DNA of 64,000 nt, taken from Clostridia bacterium. Lineage in GTDB: Bacteria > Bacillota > Clostridia > RGIG6154. Shown here piece by piece: positions 191-20,210 of this stretch. The first letter of the stretch is position 1. The number at the start of each line of letters is the position of its first letter. Position numbers and translations under genes: made by a program. Under the pieces are notes generated by a model that worked only from the letters and a program-made list of their open reading frames with translations, ran no database searches and was not told the DNA's origin. The stretch spans positions 21,374 through 85,373 of the forward strand of contig JAZNOU010000001.1 in NCBI GenBank assembly GCA_045589295.1, given 5' to 3'.

Positions 191-2821
191 TTATTTATTG
201 TCGTTGATTGCAGCCTGAGCAGCAGCCAAACGAGCGATCGGAACTCTGAATGGTGAGCATGATACATAAGTTAAACCAATCTTATGACAGAACTCAACTG
301 ATACAGGGTCACCACCGTGTTCGCCGCAAATACCACAATGCATTTCAGGACGAACTTTCTTACCCATTTCAACAGCCATTTCCATAAGCTTACCAACACC
401 TGTCTGGTCGAGCTTAGCAAACGGATCGTTTTCAAAGATTTTTGCATCATAGTAAGCGTCTAAGAACTTACCAGCATCGTCTCTAGAGAAACCATATGTC
501 ATCTGAGTAAGGTCGTTTGTACCAAAGCAGAAGAACTCAGCTTCTTTAGCAATGTCATCAGCTGTAAGACAAGCTCTTGGGATTTCAATCATAGTACCAA
601 CTTCATATTTAAGATCCGCTCCAGCGTTTGCGATTTCTTCATCAGCAGTTGCAACAACTACTTCTTTAACATATTTAAGTTCTTTGATATCGCCAACTAA
701 AGGAATCATAATTTCAGGAACCAAGTTCCAGTCAGCGTGAGCTTTTTTAACATTGATAGCAGCTCTGATTACAGCTTTTGTCTGCATCTTAGCAATTTCA
801 GGATATGTTACTGCAAGACGGCAACCACGGTGACCCATCATTGGGTTGAATTCGTGGAGTGAAGAAATAATAGCTTTAATATCTTCAACTGTCTTACCCT
901 GAGCTTTAGCGAGCGCTGCAATATCAGCTTCTTCTGTAGGAACGAATTCATGAAGCGGAGGATCCAAGAATCTGATTGTAACAGGATTTCCTTCCAATGC
1001 TTCATAAAGTTTTTCAAAGTCTCCCTGCTGATAAGGAAGAATTTTTTCAAGCGCTGCTTCTCTTTCTTCAACTGTATCTGAACAAATCATTTCTCTGAAT
1101 GCAGCAATTCTATCAGCTTCAAAGAACATATGTTCTGTACGGCAAAGACCAATACCTTCTGCACCAAGTTCACGAGCTTTTTTAGCATCTGCAGGAGTAT
1201 CAGCGTTTGTTCTAACCTGAAGTGTTCTGAATTCATCAGCCCACTGCATAATTCTGCCAAATTCGCCAGCGATTTCAGCATCAACTGTAGGAATAATTCC
1301 ATCGTAGATATTACCTGTTGAACCATCGATTGAGATGCAATCTCCTTCAACAAAAGTTTTACCTGCTAATGTGAATTTCTTATTTTCTTCATCCATATTA
1401 ATGTCGCCGCAACCTGATACACAGCATGTACCCATACCACGAGCAACAACGGCAGCGTGTGAAGTCATACCGCCACGAACTGTTAAGATACCCTGTGAAG
1501 CTTTCATACCTGTGATATCTTCAGGTGAAGTTTCAAGACGAACAAGGATAACTTTTTCGCCTCTTGCATTCCAGCTTTCAGCATCTTCAGCTGTGAATAC
1601 AACTTTACCGCAAGCAGCACCAGGAGATGCACCAAGACCTCTGCCCATAGGAGTTGCAGCTTTTAAAGCTTTAGCATCAAACTGTGGGTGCAAGAGTGTG
1701 TCAAGGTTTCTTGGGTCGATCATAGCAACAGCTTTTTTCTTATCAATCATACCTTCGTCAACAAGGTCACAAGCAATTTTAAGAGCAGCTTTTGCTGTTC
1801 TCTTGCCGTTTCTTGTCTGGAGCATGTAAAGTTTTTTGTTTTCAATTGTAAATTCCATATCCTGCATATCTCTGTAGTGATCTTCAAGGATTTTGCAAAC
1901 CTTGTTGAACTCAGCAAATGCTTCTGGGAATTTTTCAGCCATCTGAGCGATTGGCATTGGAGTACGAACGCCGGCAACAACGTCTTCACCCTGTGCGTTT
2001 ACAAGGAATTCACCCATAAGACCTGGTTCACCTGTAGCAGGATCACGAGTAAATGCAACACCTGTACCGCAATCATCACCCATATTACCAAATGCCATCA
2101 TCTGTACGTTAACAGCTGTACCCCATGAATAAGGGATATCATTATCTCTTCTGTATACATTTGCTCTTGGGTTGTCCCATGAACGGAAAACGGCTTCAAC
2201 TGCACCCATAAGCTGTTCTTTAGGATCAGCAGGGAAGTCTTTACCGATTTTGTTTTTATATTCTGCTTTAAACTGAGAAGCAAGTTCTTTAAGGTCGTTA
2301 GCATCAAGTTCAATATCCTGTGTAACACCTTTAGCTTCCTTCATTTCGTCGATAAGCTGTTCAAAATATTTCTTACCAACTTCCATAACAACGTCTGAAT
2401 ACATCTGAATAAATCTTCTGTAGCAGTCCCATGCCCAACGAGCATTTCCTGTTTTAGCAGCCATTGTTTCAACAACGTCTTCGTTAAGACCAAGATTTAA
2501 AATAGTATCCATCATACCAGGCATAGATGCTCTAGCACCTGAACGAACTGATACCAAAAGCGGATTTTCTTTATCACCAAATTTTTTGCCGCAAATAGCT
2601 TCCATTTTTACAATATTTTCCATAATCTCTGCCTGAATTTCAGCATTGATATTACGGCCATCTTCATAGTACTGAGTACAAGCCTCTGTAGATACAGTAA
2701 ATCCCTGAGGAACAGGAAGACCGATCTTTGTCATCTCAGCAAGGTTTGCGCCTTTACCACCGAGGAGTTCACGCATTGAAGCGTCGCCTTCTGAGAATAA
2801 GTAAACGAATTTTTTACTCAT
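191..2821 (-). CDS. ppdK: Pyruvate, phosphate dikinase
   Basis: 876 aa; LLGGKGANLAEM start, GGMTSHAAVVAR phospho-His motif, GICGEHGGDP C-terminal motif. Confidence 0.98.
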   Translation of the reverse strand: MSKKFVYLFSEGDASMRELLGGKGANLAEMTKIGLPVPQGFTVSTEACTQYYEDGRNINAEIQAEIMENIVKMEAICGKKFGDKENPLLVSVRSGARASMPGMMDTILNLGLNEDVVETMAAKTGNARWAWDCYRRFIQMYSDVVMEVGKKYFEQLIDEMKEAKGVTQDIELDANDLKELASQFKAEYKNKIGKDFPADPKEQLMGAVEAVFRSWDNPRANVYRRDNDIPYSWGTAVNVQMMAFGNMGDDCGTGVAFTRDPATGEPGLMGEFLVNAQGEDVVAGVRTPMPIAQMAEKFPEAFAEFNKVCKILEDHYRDMQDMEFTIENKKLYMLQTRNGKRTAKAALKIACDLVDEGMIDKKKAVAMIDPRNLDTLLHPQFDAKALKAATPMGRGLGASPGAACGKVVFTAEDAESWNARGEKVILVRLETSPEDITGMKASQGILTVRGGMTSHAAVVARGMGTCCVSGCGDINMDEENKKFTLAGKTFVEGDCISIDGSTGNIYDGIIPTVDAEIAGEFGRIMQWADEFRTLQVRTNADTPADAKKARELGAEGIGLCRTEHMFFEADRIAAFREMICSDTVEEREAALEKILPYQQGDFEKLYEALEGNPVTIRFLDPPLHEFVPTEEADIAALAKAQGKTVEDIKAIISSLHEFNPMMGHRGCRLAVTYPEIAKMQTKAVIRAAINVKKAHADWNLVPEIMIPLVGDIKELKYVKEVVVATADEEIANAGADLKYEVGTMIEIPRACLTADDIAKEAEFFCFGTNDLTQMTYGFSRDDAGKFLDAYYDAKIFENDPFAKLDQTGVGKLMEMAVEMGKKVRPEMHCGICGEHGGDPVSVEFCHKIGLTYVSCSPFRVPIARLAAAQAAINDNK

Positions 2822-11275: not shown

Positions 11276-12289
11276 TCAAACCTCCACTACCTTGCCGCCT
11301 GCCGCCTTGAACAATCTGTTGCAAAGTGCAAAACCAATTCCGTCTTCTTTTGGTTTTACCGCAAACATTTTATTTACACCAAGGCTGTCAAATTGACGCA
11401 GGTAATCAAATAAAAGCTTACTTCCCTGTTCTGATTTATAAATACTACCCAATGAAAATTCAATCTCGTTTCCTATTGGATACTCATCAAACGTTAAAAC
11501 GCCTGCCTCGGGGAATTTTTTTATATACTCTTTAATACTTTCATACTCGCCCTCTAAAACAACAAGATCGCCTTTAGGGGCATAGTGCTTATATTTCATT
11601 CCGGGACTTTTTGGTTTTTCAACACTACTTTTGTCTATAAGATGTCTGTCGTAGCTTACATCAATTCCAAGCTTTTCAATATCCTCGAATGTAACTCTTC
11701 CCGGTCTTAAAATAACAGCCTTTTGTCCTGTCACATCAATAACTGTTGACTCTAACCCAACCTCACAACTTCCACCATCTATTATCATATCTATTTTGCC
11801 ATTCAAATCCTCAAAAACGTGCTGAGCCTTTGTAGGACTTGGTCTTCCCGAAGAATTTGCAGACGGTGCAGCAATTGGCTTATTTGCATAATTTATTAAA
11901 TTTCTGGCAATCTCGTTTTCAGGAAGTCTTACTGCAACAGTATCAAGTCCACCTGAAACTGTATCTGAAACTATGCTTTGCTTTTTCATAACAAGTGTCA
12001 TAGGACCCGGCCAGAACTTGTCCATAAGTATTTTCGCAATGGGCGTAATCTCTGCGACAAGGTCTTTTAACTGTTTTATATCAGAAATATGTAAAATAAG
12101 CGGATTATCAGATGGTCTTCCCTTAGCCTGATATATTTTCTTTACAGCTTTAACATTTAAACCGTCTGCACCAAGACCATAAACAGTTTCGGTTGGAAAC
12201 GCAACAAGTCCGCCTATATTTATAATATCGGCGGCTTCTTTTAATATGTCATTATTTTTGGCGTCATATTTTACAAACTTTGTTGTCAT
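11276..12289 (-). CDS. sua5: L-threonylcarbamoyladenylate synthase, Sua5/TsaC2 type
   Basis: AFPTETVYGLG, KGRPSDNPLI, APSAN, SPGMKYKHYAP. Confidence 0.95.
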   Translation of the reverse strand: MTTKFVKYDAKNNDILKEAADIINIGGLVAFPTETVYGLGADGLNVKAVKKIYQAKGRPSDNPLILHISDIKQLKDLVAEITPIAKILMDKFWPGPMTLVMKKQSIVSDTVSGGLDTVAVRLPENEIARNLINYANKPIAAPSANSSGRPSPTKAQHVFEDLNGKIDMIIDGGSCEVGLESTVIDVTGQKAVILRPGRVTFEDIEKLGIDVSYDRHLIDKSSVEKPKSPGMKYKHYAPKGDLVVLEGEYESIKEYIKKFPEAGVLTFDEYPIGNEIEFSLGSIYKSEQGSKLLFDYLRQFDSLGVNKMFAVKPKEDGIGFALCNRLFKAAGGKVVEV

Positions 12290-12304
12290 TAAATAAAAGA
12301 CCTC

Positions 12305-12811
12305 TCAATAATTATCTTTAAGTTCCAATGAATCATCATTTTCTATCCACTGCTCTACATCGTAAACTCTATAAGTTTCTTTATCATCTCTTATGTATAC
12401 TTTTGCAATCCCTGCATTGATAATCATACGCTTGCACATTGCGCAAGGCATTGCATTTTTAACCAAAGAACCATCATCTTTTTCTTTTCCAACAAGATAA
12501 AGCTCAGCCCCCAGCATTTCACTTCTGGAAGCGCTTATAATTGCATTTGCTTCGGCGTGAACAGAACGACAAAGTTCATATCTTGTTCCTCTTGGCACAT
12601 TAAACTTTTGCCTTATACACTCACCTGTATCAATACAGTTTTGTCTGCCTCTGGGCGCACCAACATAACCAGTTGAAACAATTTCATCATTTTTAACTAT
12701 AATAGCACCAAAATTACGTCTCAAACATGTTCCGCGTTCCAATACGGTTTCTGCAATATCAAGATAGTAATTAACTTTATCTCTTCTTTCCATACAATCC
12801 ACCTCAATCAT
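12305..12811 (-). CDS. Cytidine/dCMP deaminase family protein
   Basis: HAEANAI and PCAMC Zn-binding motifs. Confidence 0.88.
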   Translation of the reverse strand: MIEVDCMERRDKVNYYLDIAETVLERGTCLRRNFGAIIVKNDEIVSTGYVGAPRGRQNCIDTGECIRQKFNVPRGTRYELCRSVHAEANAIISASRSEMLGAELYLVGKEKDDGSLVKNAMPCAMCKRMIINAGIAKVYIRDDKETYRVYDVEQWIENDDSLELKDNY

Positions 12812-16727: not shown

Positions 16728-17837
16728 TTATTCCCTCTCCCCAATACCTATAATAAACTCACACAAATCACGTGTTGCATAAGGCTTTCCAATGTGCTTT
16801 ATACCATCGGAAAGATTTTTTATTTTCCATTCATTATTAAAAAGCTGATAAATTGCTTCATCCACTTTATATGTTGATGTTACAAGCTGTGCCATACCAT
16901 TATTCAACAAAAATTCAACATTTCTGTCTTCCTGACCGGGTATAGGATTTATTAAAATAAGGGGCATTCCTTTTGCCAAACTTTCCGAAACTGTAAGACC
17001 ACCCGGCTTTGTAATTATACAATCTGATGCATCCATTAAAACATCAACATTATTCACAAAACCGTAGCAATAAATTATCTTTTTTGTATCAAGCGTTTCA
17101 ATTCTGCGCTTTAATGATTTGTTACTTCCACATACAACAATTATCTGAAAATCAAGCTCTAATTTATCAAGCTCTTTTATGCGTTTTACAACTTTACCAA
17201 AGCCCATAGAGCCACTCATCACCAAAACAGTAGGTTTTTCCTCAATACCAAGCATTTTTCTTGCCTGACTTTTAGGAATTTTCTGTGCAAATTTTTCATC
17301 AATTGGTATGCCGAAAGGTTTTATCTTTTCAAGCGGAATATTCTTTTTTTGTGCCTGACAATTTAACAACTCGGATGCTGTCACATAATAATCAAGTGTA
17401 GTTTTCTGCCAATACGGATGTATAGTATAGTCGGTAATAATTCCTACAGTAACAACATCTGACAAAATTTCTTCACCCAAAGCATTAATCATATGTGCTG
17501 CCATAACGTGCGTGGCAATAATAACATCCGGATTATATGCCTTTACAAACTTGGCAAACTTTATTTTCATAACCTTATTTGCCGCCTTTAACATATAAAG
17601 CTTGTCATAAGGGTCGCTTATCTCTGCCATTCTGTAAAATTTGCCATAAACATTTGGTGCATATTTTGTTGAAGCAAGGTAGCCTTTTTGAACACTTCCG
17701 CCTAAAAGCTTGCTTACATATTTGTAAACATCAATAAGCTTTGCTTCGTGCCCATGGCTTTTTATATATTTTTCTATTGCCGCACCGGTAGACAAGTGTC
17801 CACCGCCGGTTGGTATTGTAAGAACCAATACTTTCAT
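16728..17837 (-). CDS. Diacylglycerol glycosyltransferase (MGDG synthase/UgtP family, GT28)
   Basis: TGGGH, ITDYTIH, ITKPGGLTVSE, PIPGQEDRN. Confidence 0.88.
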   Translation of the reverse strand: MKVLVLTIPTGGGHLSTGAAIEKYIKSHGHEAKLIDVYKYVSKLLGGSVQKGYLASTKYAPNVYGKFYRMAEISDPYDKLYMLKAANKVMKIKFAKFVKAYNPDVIIATHVMAAHMINALGEEILSDVVTVGIITDYTIHPYWQKTTLDYYVTASELLNCQAQKKNIPLEKIKPFGIPIDEKFAQKIPKSQARKMLGIEEKPTVLVMSGSMGFGKVVKRIKELDKLELDFQIIVVCGSNKSLKRRIETLDTKKIIYCYGFVNNVDVLMDASDCIITKPGGLTVSESLAKGMPLILINPIPGQEDRNVEFLLNNGMAQLVTSTYKVDEAIYQLFNNEWKIKNLSDGIKHIGKPYATRDLCEFIIGIGERE

Positions 17838-17941
17838 TTTTTCTACTTCCTTTTATAAATAAATTGCAAACATTTTCAAATTCACATTTATTTTAATATG
17901 ACAAAACTATCCACTTGTCCACTGCAAGAGAATTAACAACT

Positions 17942-17995
17942 TTACTTATATTCCCTGAATTGTACGGATACTCCATCGGGGTCATAAACATAAAA
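17942..17995 (-). pseudogene. 3' fragment of interrupted VOC/glyoxalase gene
   Basis: Encodes FYVYDPDGVSVQFREYK-stop, the typical VOC C-terminal F-x-DPDG motif. Confidence 0.8.
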
Positions 17996-18070
17996 ACTGC
18001 GAGGCATAAAGTTTAGATGCAAACCCTTTTTGATGGCTGCTCATGTCAAGCTATAACTAAAAACATATAA

Positions 18071-18381
18071 ATAAATTGGAATTTGTTTATTTCTTTTTTC
18101 GTATAGGTACAATTACCTTTAACAGCAGTATAATAACAGCTATCAGGAAAAGTTGTATAAGGATAGCATAAATTATAAGACCCCGCGATTCGTAATAACA
18201 CAACTCGTCCCACCAAACAACGACTTCAAAAATCGCAGTCAGTAAAATACTAAACCAAACATATCTACGATTGATAAAGAAAAATACAAAAGATAGGATA
18301 AATGTCGGTAAAACTTTTGGTAATAAAAGATATTGAATGATTATTGTTAGCATAATGACACCACCACAAATTCTTATTTAT
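18071..18381. repeat. Inverted ~16-bp sites bracketing the passenger ORF
   Basis: ATAAATTGGAATTTGT (18071-18086) and ACAAATTCTTATTTAT (18366-18381) are 14/16 complementary. Confidence 0.7.
18087..18353 (-). CDS. Small hydrophobic membrane protein (about 3 TM helices), cassette passenger
   Basis: 88 aa with three hydrophobic stretches, basic tail and RBS-like GGTGGTG. Confidence 0.7.
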   Translation of the reverse strand: MLTIIIQYLLLPKVLPTFILSFVFFFINRRYVWFSILLTAIFEVVVWWDELCYYESRGLIIYAILIQLFLIAVIILLLKVIVPIRKKK

Positions 18382-18401
18382 CTGTTTGACATTTTTACGA
18401 C

Positions 18402-18707
18402 ATACTTTGCGTCAGGCTCAGGATGACGAATATCAGACGGATTCATACCAAGCAAAACAGCCTTACTGTGCACCGTCTCAAGGTTATCTGTAGCAAAGCA
18501 TAAAAACATACCTTTGCCCTCAAACACTTGGCCTTCAGGCATAGCAATTAATTCTACTTCGGTATCGTTTTCAGAATCATAAAGATAAGCAACATTTCCA
18601 CCGCCTGCAGAAAATTGCTTACCAATCTTAAGTTGGACAAGTTCGGTATAAAAATTTAAAGAATTTTCAAAATTTTTTACTCTTAACGATATGTGATGAA
18701 ATTTAAT
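18402..18707 (-). pseudogene. 5' part of interrupted VOC/glyoxalase gene
   Basis: (I/M)KFHHISLRVKNFENSLNFYTELVQL...EVELI...FLCFATDNLE; begins with ATT after RBS-like GAAAGGG. Confidence 0.8.
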
Positions 18708-18779
18708 ATTAATTTCCCTTTCTAAAATTCCTCTCTGACATAAGCAGGCTCTGCTCGTTGATTAAGACTGGTCTAAACA

Positions 18780-20210
18780 TTATATTCTTTTATACAATTC
18801 ATTCAGCCTAATATATTTATTTTTATCAATAGATAAAAGCTGGTCTTTTGTAATTCTGAAACGCCAATTACCATCTGCTTGTCCCGGGATATTCATTCTT
18901 GTATCCGAGCCATAGCACAACAAATCTTGAATGGGAAGAATTACAATGCCTGCATTACTCATAAAGACTGCTCTTAAGATGCTGTCAATTCCATTTCCCC
19001 AATCTTCCGAGAAATAGTTACAGTATTCCAACATTCTTTTTTTATTGTCCATATCAAGTTCCCATAAATATCCTAAAAGTGTATTATTGTCGTGAGTGCC
19101 TGTATATGCAACACAATTATTTATGTAATTATGAGGCATATGAGGGTTATCATAATCACCTAAAAAGCCAAATTGGAACACTCGTATTCCCGGCAAATTG
19201 TTATCCTCTAAAAGCTTAACTACCTCCTCAGTAATTTCACCAAGGTCTTCTGCTATAATAAGCTTATCGGAAAAACGGGAATTGATTTTTTCTATAAAAT
19301 CCGTTCCCGGTCCTTTAATCCACTTACCATTTTTTGCGGTCTTACTGCCATAGGGTACTGCCCAGAATGATTCAAGTCCGCGGAAATGGTCAATCCTTAC
19401 CCCATCAAAAAGTTCGGTCATATAAGCGATTCTTTCCATCCACCAGCCAAAACCGTTTTCTCTCATTTTTTCCCAATTGTAAAGAGGATTTCCCCAAAGC
19501 TGACCATCCTCACAAAAATAATCTGGCGGAACACCCGCAACAAGAGTTGGCTTATCACCGTCAAGCAAAAATTCTTCCTTATTGGACCATACATCAGAGC
19601 TGTCAAAAGAAACATATATTGGTATATCACCTATAATTTTAATTCCTTTTTCATTTGCATAGGCCTTTATATCAAGCCACTCATTTATAAACTCATATTG
19701 AATAAATTGCCACATAAAAAGAGTTGCAGGGTCATAATCTTCCCTGGTCCACAAGTTCCAGGGCTTGTTTTCATTTGCATCTTTTTTTGCCATAAACAGG
19801 CAAAAATTATTTACCAAAGGTCTGGCTTCGATATAGGAAGACACCTTATTTTTATCAACCACTCTGGACGACGCCTTCATAAGAAGAGTAAAGCGCTCCT
19901 CCCACAGTCTTTCATACTCAGCACCATAAGGCTGAGCCTGCCTTGCAATGTCAAGCTCATCCTTAGTGACAAGTCCTTTTTTAAAAAGTATTTCCAAATC
20001 CACAAAATAGGGATTACCAGAAAAGGCACTGTACGACTGATAAGGTGAATTAAAGCTATCTGCCATATTGAACGGCAATACCTGCCAGTATGAAAACTTA
20101 CATTCACTTAGAAAATCAACAAACTCCTTTGCGGCCTCTCCAAAACTACCTATGGAATAATCCCCATACAATGAGGATATATGCATTAAAACCCCGCTTT
20201 TTCTTTTCAT
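18780..20210 (-). CDS. malQ: 4-alpha-glucanotransferase (GH77)
   Basis: RKSGVLMHISSL, GQLWGNPLY, RIDHFRG, IAEDLG, YTGTHDN. Confidence 0.96.
   Translation of the reverse strand: MKRKSGVLMHISSLYGDYSIGSFGEAAKEFVDFLSECKFSYWQVLPFNMADSFNSPYQSYSAFSGNPYFVDLEILFKKGLVTKDELDIARQAQPYGAEYERLWEERFTLLMKASSRVVDKNKVSSYIEARPLVNNFCLFMAKKDANENKPWNLWTREDYDPATLFMWQFIQYEFINEWLDIKAYANEKGIKIIGDIPIYVSFDSSDVWSNKEEFLLDGDKPTLVAGVPPDYFCEDGQLWGNPLYNWEKMRENGFGWWMERIAYMTELFDGVRIDHFRGLESFWAVPYGSKTAKNGKWIKGPGTDFIEKINSRFSDKLIIAEDLGEITEEVVKLLEDNNLPGIRVFQFGFLGDYDNPHMPHNYINNCVAYTGTHDNNTLLGYLWELDMDNKKRMLEYCNYFSEDWGNGIDSILRAVFMSNAGIVILPIQDLLCYGSDTRMNIPGQADGNWRFRITKDQLLSIDKNKYIRLNELYKRI

Follow-up and report, generated by a model that had tools for sequence, protein, structure and literature searches.

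Whether a gene closely bracketed by inverted repeats has been captured as a unit, and whether those repeats are the sites of its capture, is the question raised by a small locus in the genome of a Clostridia bacterium (GenBank assembly GCA_045589295.1). The locus lies in a 64,000-nt stretch of contig JAZNOU010000001.1, referred to here as the window, and comprises an 88-aa open reading frame (ORF88) with one 16-nt sequence at its stop codon (S2, or IR-R) and an inverse copy at its Shine-Dalgarno (SD) sequence (S3, or IR-L). A preliminary description, made from the letters alone, had taken the two sites to delimit exactly the ribosome-binding site and the ORF, had noted an inward-facing ATGTCAA motif further out on each flank, and had proposed that the sites were recombination sites of an undescribed, integron-like system for the capture of small genes. 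The positions given for S2 and S3 agree with the sequence, the reverse complement of S2 matching S3 at 14 of 16 letters; a repeat search extended the pair to 23 nt at 78% identity (18064-18086 and 18366-18388) and revealed a third arm copy, S1, at 17877-17891. The outer motifs were likewise found, as ATGTCAA at 18044-18050 and TTGACAT at 18386-18392. Comparison with other strains identified ORF88 as the passenger of a 406-bp insertion that disrupts a VOC-family gene and that some strains lack, and the ends of this insertion lie outside both S2 and S3.

Logan contigs of four public sequencing runs (X1-X4), from four studies, were compared with the window over positions 16800-19800. An empty allele was found in X2 (record 11, 1247 nt) and X4 (record 27, 858 nt), where position 17995 is joined to 18402 with a 1-nt ambiguity and the contig flanks differ from the window by 1-14 letters. 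The filled allele was present in a 23.5-kb contig of X1 (record 1) and, in fragments crossing the left joint, in X3 (including record 19). The empty allele restores an intact VOC gene. In the window this gene ends in DAKY-VVKMSNR and a stop, its last seven codons and the stop coming from cassette sequence, while beyond the insert an orphaned segment (17942-17995) translates to FYVYDPDGVSVQFREYK followed by a stop, which is the C-terminus of all six aligned intact 119-aa VOC homologues (...DAKY-FYVYDPDGVSVQFREYK). Since the intact homologues end in this way, the empty allele is ancestral and the 406 bp are an insertion into VOC coding sequence. A VOC gene was not found in 20 relatives (E <= 1e-8), and synteny could therefore supply no empty site. 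The VOC gene is in fact broken twice in this strain, by an ATT start and by the loss of its last 17 codons to the cassette; position 18705 reads C, giving ATG, in the X1, X2 and X4 contigs.

Read on the coding strand, the insert consists of (T)GTCGTAAAAATGTCAAACAG, IR-L, the SD, ORF88, IR-R, TTATATG, a BoxA-like segment, a hairpin, a core and TCGCAG(T). Its ends lie beyond S3 by 21 nt and beyond S2 by 75 nt, and fall within a conserved junction element described below, between its TCGCAA and TGTCGAA parts. No target-site duplication was visible at the insert ends in the filled/empty comparison (1-nt ambiguity), and the microhomology at the joints is 1-2 nt. The proposal of capture as a mobile cassette therefore stands in so far as ORF88 belongs to a discrete unit, present or absent as 406 bp in two studies, and falls in so far as this unit does not end at S2 and S3. 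These sites do bracket the SD and ORF88, but they do not delimit what was inserted, and as recombination sites they find no support in the VOC insertion.

The outer part of the insert proved to be the more informative one. The segment 17998-18096 matches several places in other genera at 88-92% identity, far above the values for two comparison loci, the neighbouring glycosyltransferase (74-78% within the genus) and malQ (~67-68%). When a 107-nt trailer query was used in BLAST searches, matches were obtained in 9 of 18 genomes of the same bacterial family, in clusters spaced 0.4-1.7 kb, with 10 copies in G012, 7 in G007 and 3 each in G005 and G011. In these four genomes the copies lie on one strand between unrelated small genes and form rows of promoter-less, unrelated cassettes in a single orientation, as is typical of integrons. 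Along the gene strand a junction comprises the stop codon, TTTTTGTYCCTAAYTCGACAYGAAC (BoxA, with an inverted TGTCGAA inside), a short variable hairpin with an A-run, the core TGCATCTAAACCTTATG, two variable letters and TCGCAAT; BoxA, core and TCGCAAT are common to 42 of 47 distinct core contexts. After TCGCAAT, 21 of 41 copies continue with a spacer of 0-9 nt (8 nt in 17), TGTCGAA-like boxes (one in 3 copies, at least two and in tandem in 18; background 1.8%), and then an SD and ATG, and the remaining 20 lead into non-coding hairpin arrays, a second promoter-like module or a resident gene. The outer ATGTCAA/TTGACAT pair of the preliminary description is an inverted and a direct copy of this TGTCGAA-like box, present on both sides as claimed, and does not constitute a separate class of site.

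Of 151 Clostridia genomes sampled, 14, representing seven or more families, contain a 25-nt pattern made of the core and TCGCAA (up to 2 mismatches); the reversed control gave no match. Passengers in the arrays include GrpB, EEP, GDSL, SASA, Metallophos, beta-lactamase fold, DUF2500, DUF559, DUF1349 and EamA proteins. Three cassettes (J07/J31, J10/J30 and J19/J36) are shared at 95-96% identity between different genera or genomes with different neighbours; when two hairpin-array families are included, the sharing between genera amid different neighbours spans 84-96%. The Metallophos pair J19/J36 (G007:C79 and G012:C45) supplies a second, independent left boundary, being identical from ATGTCGAA onwards and differing in the 6-nt spacer just before it and in all upstream sequence. 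Rfam searches at gathering scores returned nothing on three array loci, and on 17500-18800, at the E-value threshold, returned only a sub-threshold match to the archaeal sRNA162 inside the glycosyltransferase gene. The general idea of an undescribed cassette system is supported by the insertion/deletion polymorphism and by conserved flanks around unrelated genes, and no published description of the junction was found in open-access papers or bioRxiv.

The arms themselves also recur. IR-L-type leaders precede ORF88, a GrpB gene (G005), an EamA gene (G002), a DUF1349 gene (G012) and 264-aa, 144-aa, ~200-aa and 213-aa genes (G007 and G009), and a ninth is S1, before a glycosyltransferase gene. 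IR-R-like sequence follows 0-13 nt after the stop codons, complementary at 12 of 14 positions in five cases, 11 in one and 10 in two; two other leader/trailer cases, S1 with the glycosyltransferase and L120, gave no meaningful IR-R-like match. All eight aligned leaders, which precede unrelated genes, keep ATAAAT..GAATTTG without change. The centre of the arms is asymmetric in the family, NA in the leader versus CA in the trailer, and that of IR-L is AA, TA, GA or CG among otherwise identical carriers. Both the leader (19/19) and the trailer (21/21) of ORF88 are found unchanged around the GrpB gene and nearly so around the DUF1349 and EamA genes, which matches the earlier expectation of identical carrier ends with different passengers; four carriers in the family have common flanks and different ORFs. 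In 4 of 18 family genomes the 21-nt trailer recurs with at most 1 mismatch, following a different gene each time; exact and 1-mismatch matches in a class-wide scan were confined to these four genomes, and its 25 two-mismatch matches were mostly noise (8 in the control). Arms of this kind border no fewer than seven unrelated genes within the one bacterial family. Copies in arrays have tandem TGTCGAA-like boxes upstream of IR-L; in five stand-alone copies (L060, L061, L068, L106 and L123) that place, 10-13 nt from IR-L, is taken by a TGnTATAAT-type -10 box.

ORF88 has no Pfam family, and an Atlas search returned no named relatives, only unnamed clusters. Its 27 homologues (~88 aa, 51-97% identity, with conserved motifs FINRRYVWFS and YYESRGL) are scattered over Clostridia, among them a C. 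symbiosum metagenome-assembled genome (MAG), Oscillibacter sp. PC13, Flavonifractor porci and a Blautia MAG. The gene was not found in three genomes of the same genus (G001-G003), and 41 relatives gave two weak, probably spurious matches. Most homologue loci carry ATAAAT-CG-GAATTT or a variant just 5' of the SD and (T)AAATTCC-GG-TTTAT or a variant at the stop codon, and so, on a point that the preliminary description had listed among its refuting conditions, the passenger's homologues in distant Clostridia mostly retain the arms. Its statement that small accessory genes in Clostridia are bordered by CAAATTCC..ATTT motifs proves right both here and in the family scan. In 15 proposed arm pairs from 12 distinct ORF88 cassettes, standard pairs occupied 81.9% of cells versus 77.1% after shuffling, a value reached by none of 500 shuffles, and sliding the partners by 1-3 columns reduced pairing to 26-54%; six pairs were altered on both sides, for example from U-A to C-G in three sequences. 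Exceptions are L061, which has lost the 3' arm, L059, which has a different 5' arm, and L074 and L076, which pair poorly. A unit of 303 bp, from IR-L to IR-R (-26 to +10), is 100% identical in loci L060 and L069, whose flanks are otherwise unalignable, and L062 and L063 are 94% identical from -20 to +32 around the gene. ORF88 is a widely travelled, small predicted membrane protein of no named family. Elsewhere in Clostridia it occupies cargo positions of conjugative or mobilisable elements, as in the gene orders DUF3847-ORF88-MobA/MobL relaxase (L060:1877-3507) and ORF88-GNAT-DUF3801 (L068:1501-3261).

Could an AT-rich inverted pair simply have come to bracket a small ORF by chance and without function? 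Within this genome alone the S2/S3 pair is not significant, because three tests place it at chance level. Inverted pairs as good as this one (16 nt, at least 14 matches, gap 100-600) number 39 in the window, against a mean of 29.5 and a range of 18-47 in 10 Markov simulations; a degenerate 16-mer with up to 2 mismatches gave 3 matches, against 1.21 expected, a count reached in 10 of 100 shuffles; and leader/trailer complementarity over 1323 gene models was distributed as in permuted pairs, with 12 or more of 14 positions complementary in 16 real genes (~16 expected) and 13 of 14 in ORF88 and one other gene (~1.6 expected). The outer ATGTCAA occurs 379 times in the genome. The picture changes across relatives. 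The motif CAAATTCNNATTTAT, present three times in the whole 1.54-Mb genome and each time within 500 nt at this locus, gave 24 matches in 18 family genomes versus 2 for the reversed control: in 9 cases it is a leader before an SD and start codon, in 3 a trailer following a stop codon, in 1 it looks like part of a junction but has no clear ORF, and in 11 it falls within unrelated coding sequence (for example, conserved YKYEF codons). None of the 24 flanks a transposase gene. A scan for the site, as the preliminary description had advised, remains at chance level with the degenerate 16-mer in this genome and shows enrichment of CAAATTCNNATTTAT in the family. This enrichment, the maintenance of the arms in other families around homologues that share 51-61% protein identity with ORF88, compensatory changes included, and the bordering of unrelated genes by the identical type of arm leave chance a very improbable explanation.

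The explanation we favour, and to which we would give an even chance of being right, is that the locus belongs to a junction-based, enzyme-mediated but integrase-less cassette family of gut Clostridia, in which S2 and S3 are the arms of a split junction. A cassette would be composed, on the coding strand, of the junction 3' half (two TGTCGAA-like boxes, IR-L and the SD), the ORF and the junction 5' half (IR-R, the inverted box TTGACAT, a hairpin and a near-invariant 25-nt core ending in TCGCA(A/G)). Joined head to tail, its ends would form one ~130-nt junction, able to fold as a long imperfect palindrome with IR-R:IR-L as its outermost helix, and movement would take place by recombination within this junction, between TCGCAA and the first TGTCGAA box, through an enzyme that we infer to be encoded elsewhere. 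One such cassette would have entered the VOC gene at a secondary site, cutting that gene short, and S2 and S3 would be conserved arms rather than crossover points of that insertion. The route would be circular or site-specific, and the crossover position may hold as a rule. In the integrated state, where the arms bracket the SD and ORF, the mRNA may form a ~20-bp closing stem, to which some role could be ascribed. In a more ambitious form of this proposal, gut Clostridia would own a cassette system in which the ~130-nt junction and 25-nt core are recognised by a trans-acting enzyme that moves single genes and hairpin-array cassettes into integron-like arrays, the arms serving as closing helix in recombination and as a clamp on the mRNA; we consider this possible but doubtful.

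Folding gives this reading partial encouragement. The cassette ends hold nested complementary segments (ACAAATTC/GAATTTGT, TTATTTAT/ATAAATAA, TGTTT/AAACA and TTGACAT/ATGTCAA), the rejoined ends of three out of four cassettes are predicted to fold into a single long hairpin with IR-R:IR-L as its closing helix (z -1.8 to -3.1), and the ORF88 transcript shows the IR-L:IR-R helix in both minimum-free-energy (MFE) and centroid folds, as a predicted ~20-bp closing stem around the SD and ORF. In a head-to-tail joint of the ORF88 cassette, the rebuilt junction would have a spacer of 0 nt, as does one other copy (L092).

Several observations weigh against this reading of the locus. The rejoined fold fails in G002, where an arm is mutated, and elsewhere is only modestly better than in shuffles; swapped trailers and leaders fold equally well and therefore give no sign of specificity; and the ORF88 transcript as a whole is no stabler than shuffles (z = 0.0). 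Among the arm pairs, coding-strand G-U pairs outnumber A-C mismatches by 19 to 9 in sequences that are related to one another, an excess that would lean weakly towards pairing in the sense strand. The 8-nt spacer of 17 out of 21 box-bearing junctions is missing from the VOC insertion, which also shows no target duplication and could therefore be a one-off illegitimate event. Cassette boundaries are not uniform, the high identity of J10/J30 stopping at the stop codon, at least 15-17 nt before the core. All read evidence comes from assembled contigs, which are blind to circles and rare forms. Finally, no recombinase or transposase family was detected among 41 proteins in and around eight arrays, nor any recombinase on the contig of the window (C1), where PF00589, a model not specific to IntI, gave 0 hits and 9 on other contigs; the association with a single recombinase family that the preliminary description had looked forward to did not emerge.

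The genome as a whole holds 12 serine recombinases (4 small and eight of 514-577 aa), 9 tyrosine recombinases and Y1 transposase fragments. The serine and tyrosine recombinase genes are spread over contigs C2, C5, C8, C10, C12 and C18, and their number in a 1.54-Mb genome suggests a heavy load of integrative elements. There are, accordingly, many candidate trans enzymes, and none is linked to the cassette. A tyrosine recombinase with an 8-bp overlap was considered and set aside: it did not reproduce the observed junctions, only 4 nt separating GACGCAA from TGTCGTA at the left joint.

A tentative competitor, less than probable in our judgement, does without a dedicated recombinase. The junction would be a promoter with Spo0A operators, IR-L and IR-R a clamp between untranslated regions (UTRs), and genes would be shuffled by homologous recombination between the repeated modules, with rare illegitimate insertions, in the manner of the promoter early stem-loops (PeSLs) of T4-type phages, whose minicircles are evidence that genes can be shuffled by repeated regulatory cassettes (PMC2839356). 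TGTCGAA is described as the core of the Spo0A (0A) box (PMC3485338), and the tandem boxes after TCGCAA together with a spo0A gene in the genome (C5:86612-86923) would agree, by sequence, with Spo0A-controlled promoters, although the boxes of the window itself are degenerate (TGTCGTA and TGTCAAA). The -10-type box upstream of IR-L in the five stand-alone copies would place IR-L at the 5' end of an mRNA; the long-range stem appears in MFE and centroid folds alike; and the compensatory changes and sense-strand G-U excess, the variable cassette boundaries and the failure to find a recombinase nearby are all readily accommodated. Against this, a sigma-70 consensus scan of the G011 array flagged none of its six cores and returned 8 sites, none at a core, where 16.8 were expected, and what would be the promoter spacer is as invariant across families as the hexamers, which is unusual for a promoter. 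A promoter/terminator scan of a 2.7-kb array gave two terminator-like sites, neither at a junction, and TTGCAT-N17-CAATAT looks promoter-like by eye. The arms are conserved in sequence beyond what pairing demands, with a fixed unpaired centre (NA versus CA) that recurs in family f1, and pairing of leader and trailer is no general tendency among the 1323 gene models. Homologous recombination could not have put a cassette into the VOC gene, because that gene has no junction.

The original proposal, that S2 and S3 are themselves crossover sites, is in our view unlikely. They would be heterospecific inverted sites like those of Acinetobacter dif modules, or terminal inverted repeats like those of mobile insertion cassettes (MICs), between which a recombinase or transposase acting in trans moves the ribosome-binding site and ORF. 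The homology breakpoints at the arms in L060/L069 and L062/L063, where one ORF sits in different flanks, would be as expected, as would the four loci with common flanks and different ORFs, the conservation of arm sequence across eight unrelated passengers and the consistent difference between left and right arm centres, and the serine and tyrosine recombinases of the genome could provide the activity. Yet in the only insertion with directly readable ends, these ends lie away from S2 and S3. No target duplication is visible at the arms by eye, the motif occurs three times in the genome and on no insertion sequence (IS), and L061 retains the gene without IR-R. The variable centre of IR-L (AA, TA, GA or CG) argues against a crossover dinucleotide, and the 15-16-nt sites show by eye no 11-6-11 layout of the kind that Xer sites have. 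Nor did the contigs of the four runs contain an inversion, excision or strand-changing joint at S2/S3, a weak negative given that contigs drop rare variants. Resemblance to sigma-F/G and sigma-54 promoters, dif, hix and IS200/IS605 ends was also considered, and none was convincing.

The favoured reading, a split junction moved by an enzyme in trans, invites comparison with several known systems. With integron and attC arrays, including clusters of attC sites lacking integron-integrases (CALIN), the present arrays share mostly single, promoter-less and unrelated accessory genes in same-strand rows with a conserved, partly palindromic junction; here, too, part of the junction lies at each cassette end, the joined ends rebuild it, and arrays occur without a neighbouring integrase. 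Unlike integrons, no IntI was found adjacent, and GTTRRRY is missing from both cassette ends, which read (T)GTCGTA... and ...TCGCAG(T). Unlike attC, the junction is conserved in sequence (a 25-nt core across families) and not just in structure, carries TGTCGAA boxes, and is split near its middle and not at its 3' base, so that the hairpin of the rejoined junction has the break inside it. In the genomes covered by one published survey, complete integrons were found in no Firmicutes (PMC4889954); the hosts here are Clostridia. MICs, such as MIC231 of Bacillus cereus, are likewise transposase-free passengers between short inverted repeats, found in several contexts and presumably moved in trans. 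Their ends are the terminal repeats of a known IS, and target duplications accompany their insertion, whereas no IS with these arms was found in the genome studied here, the arms include the 5' UTR and stop-codon region, and the insertion ends outside them. In the Acinetobacter dif (pdif) modules, inverted sites bound gene modules, neighbours share sites, and housekeeping recombinases encoded elsewhere shuffle the modules among replicons. The pdif sites are 28-bp XerC/XerD sites of 11-6-11 layout, unlike the AT-rich arms of 15-16 nt described here.

T4-type phage PeSLs resemble the junction as a repeated regulatory cassette between small non-essential genes, and exchange between their repeats is described as leading to gene gain, loss, replacement and minicircles (PMC2839356). 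The arrays studied here differ in being chromosomal and bacterial, in a core that fails the sigma-70 scan, and in one cassette inserted without a repeat at its target. For the icaR mRNA of Staphylococcus aureus, a 3' region complementary to the 5' UTR beside the ribosome-binding site has been described (PMC3868564). The arms of ORF88 similarly represent 5'/3' complementarity next to a ribosome-binding site. In icaR it is reportedly the SD itself that the 3' UTR covers, and the feature is confined to one gene, whereas here the arms do not extend into the SD, reach or overlap the stop codon and are repeated around unrelated genes.

The ways in which gut Clostridia acquire and exchange small accessory genes, other than by plasmids, phages and integrative and conjugative elements, are poorly described, and the locus offers a handle on them: a natural filled/empty pair that defines a cassette to the base, a searchable junction and conserved arms that can be mutated. 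Were the junction a true recombination site, it would represent a new class of gene-capture platform in dominant gut bacteria and a possible tool for cassette exchange; should it prove to be a regulatory module held in common, it would be the chromosomal parallel, in bacteria, of PeSL shuffling in phages, possibly under Spo0A control.

Table 1 Features of the ORF88 locus, in positions of the window
Feature	Position	Strand	Remarks
ORF88	18087..18353	minus	Passenger gene; 88-aa predicted membrane protein, stop codon counted in
S2 (IR-R)	18071-18086	minus	ATAAATTGGAATTTGT; coding strand ACAAATTCCAATTTAT; touches the TAA stop of ORF88, directly 3'
S3 (IR-L)	18366-18381	minus	ACAAATTCTTATTTAT; coding strand ATAAATAAGAATTTGT; directly 5' of the SD
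SD of ORF88, GGTGGTG	18359-18365	minus	5 nt upstream of the ATG at 18353
Mobile cassette, 406 bp	17996..18401	minus	Insertion relative to the empty allele
Two degenerate TGTCGAA-like boxes	18385..18402	minus	TGTCGTA and TGTCAAA
Box TGTCGTA	18402-18396	minus	Marker of the cassette left end
Box TGTCAAA	18391-18385	minus	Outer TTGACAT of the preliminary description
Junction 5' half at cassette 3' end	17997..18070	minus	TTATATG, BoxA-like TTGACAT (18044-18050), hairpin, core, TCGCAG
Core within junction 5' half	18005-18021		TGCATCTAAACTTTATG
TCGCAG within junction 5' half	17997-18002		
Orphaned VOC 3' end	17942..17995	minus	Translation FYVYDPDGVSVQFREYK and stop; identical to C-termini of intact 119-aa homologues
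Truncated VOC/glyoxalase-family gene	18378..18707	minus	Pfam PF00903, profile positions 1-105 of 121
S1 region	17854..17893	minus	ATAAATGTGAATTTG (perfect IR-L consensus), 10 nt, then CAATTTATTTATA (3' half of IR-R)

The third arm copy, S1, lies outside the insert and forms a local hairpin before the SD of the glycosyltransferase gene, in that gene's 5' region. It is present in the empty allele (X2 records 10 and 11) and absent upstream of the orthologous glycosyltransferase in G001-G003, in each of which the upstream neighbour of this gene is a different one. S1 may be the scar of an older cassette or a landing site.

A second junction core of this genome (G000:C15:44456-44493; L017 ~1440-1760, minus strand) precedes an MFS-like transporter gene, and upstream of it lies a hairpin array with GGTTCT spacers, homologous to the region upstream of the DUF1349 cassette of G012 (L015 2230-2400). 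Upstream of spoVT (G000:C2, 68526-68860, minus strand) we noted TGCATATTTTTCACCTCGCAAG...TGTGTCGAA...TTCGACA; the order TGCAT..CCTCGCAA..TGTCGAA is by eye that of the junction, a likeness that BLAST does not detect. A phage origin of the junction was considered and dropped, because, of the six IMG/VR matches to the 17-nt core, five are not junctions, lying in unrelated sequence without TCGCAAT, and the sixth lies at a contig edge. In L132, L135, L136, L024 and L133, TCGCAAT is followed by a second module, an A-run and TGGCATCTAGATTATACAGTCTTTATA, which by eye has a -35/N17/-10 arrangement and is core-like. Slots without an ORF between two cores, filled instead by hairpin arrays, occur at L131:11270-11525 (minus strand), L130 ~12060-12500 and L136 ~1580-1780. 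These arrays consist of short variable hairpins with a constant 8-9-nt spacer (TCGATATG, ATGAATTG or AGCTAAATT), inverted in the second half; one of them, with no Rfam match, folds at z = -5.2, and two array families are 84-92% conserved between genera.

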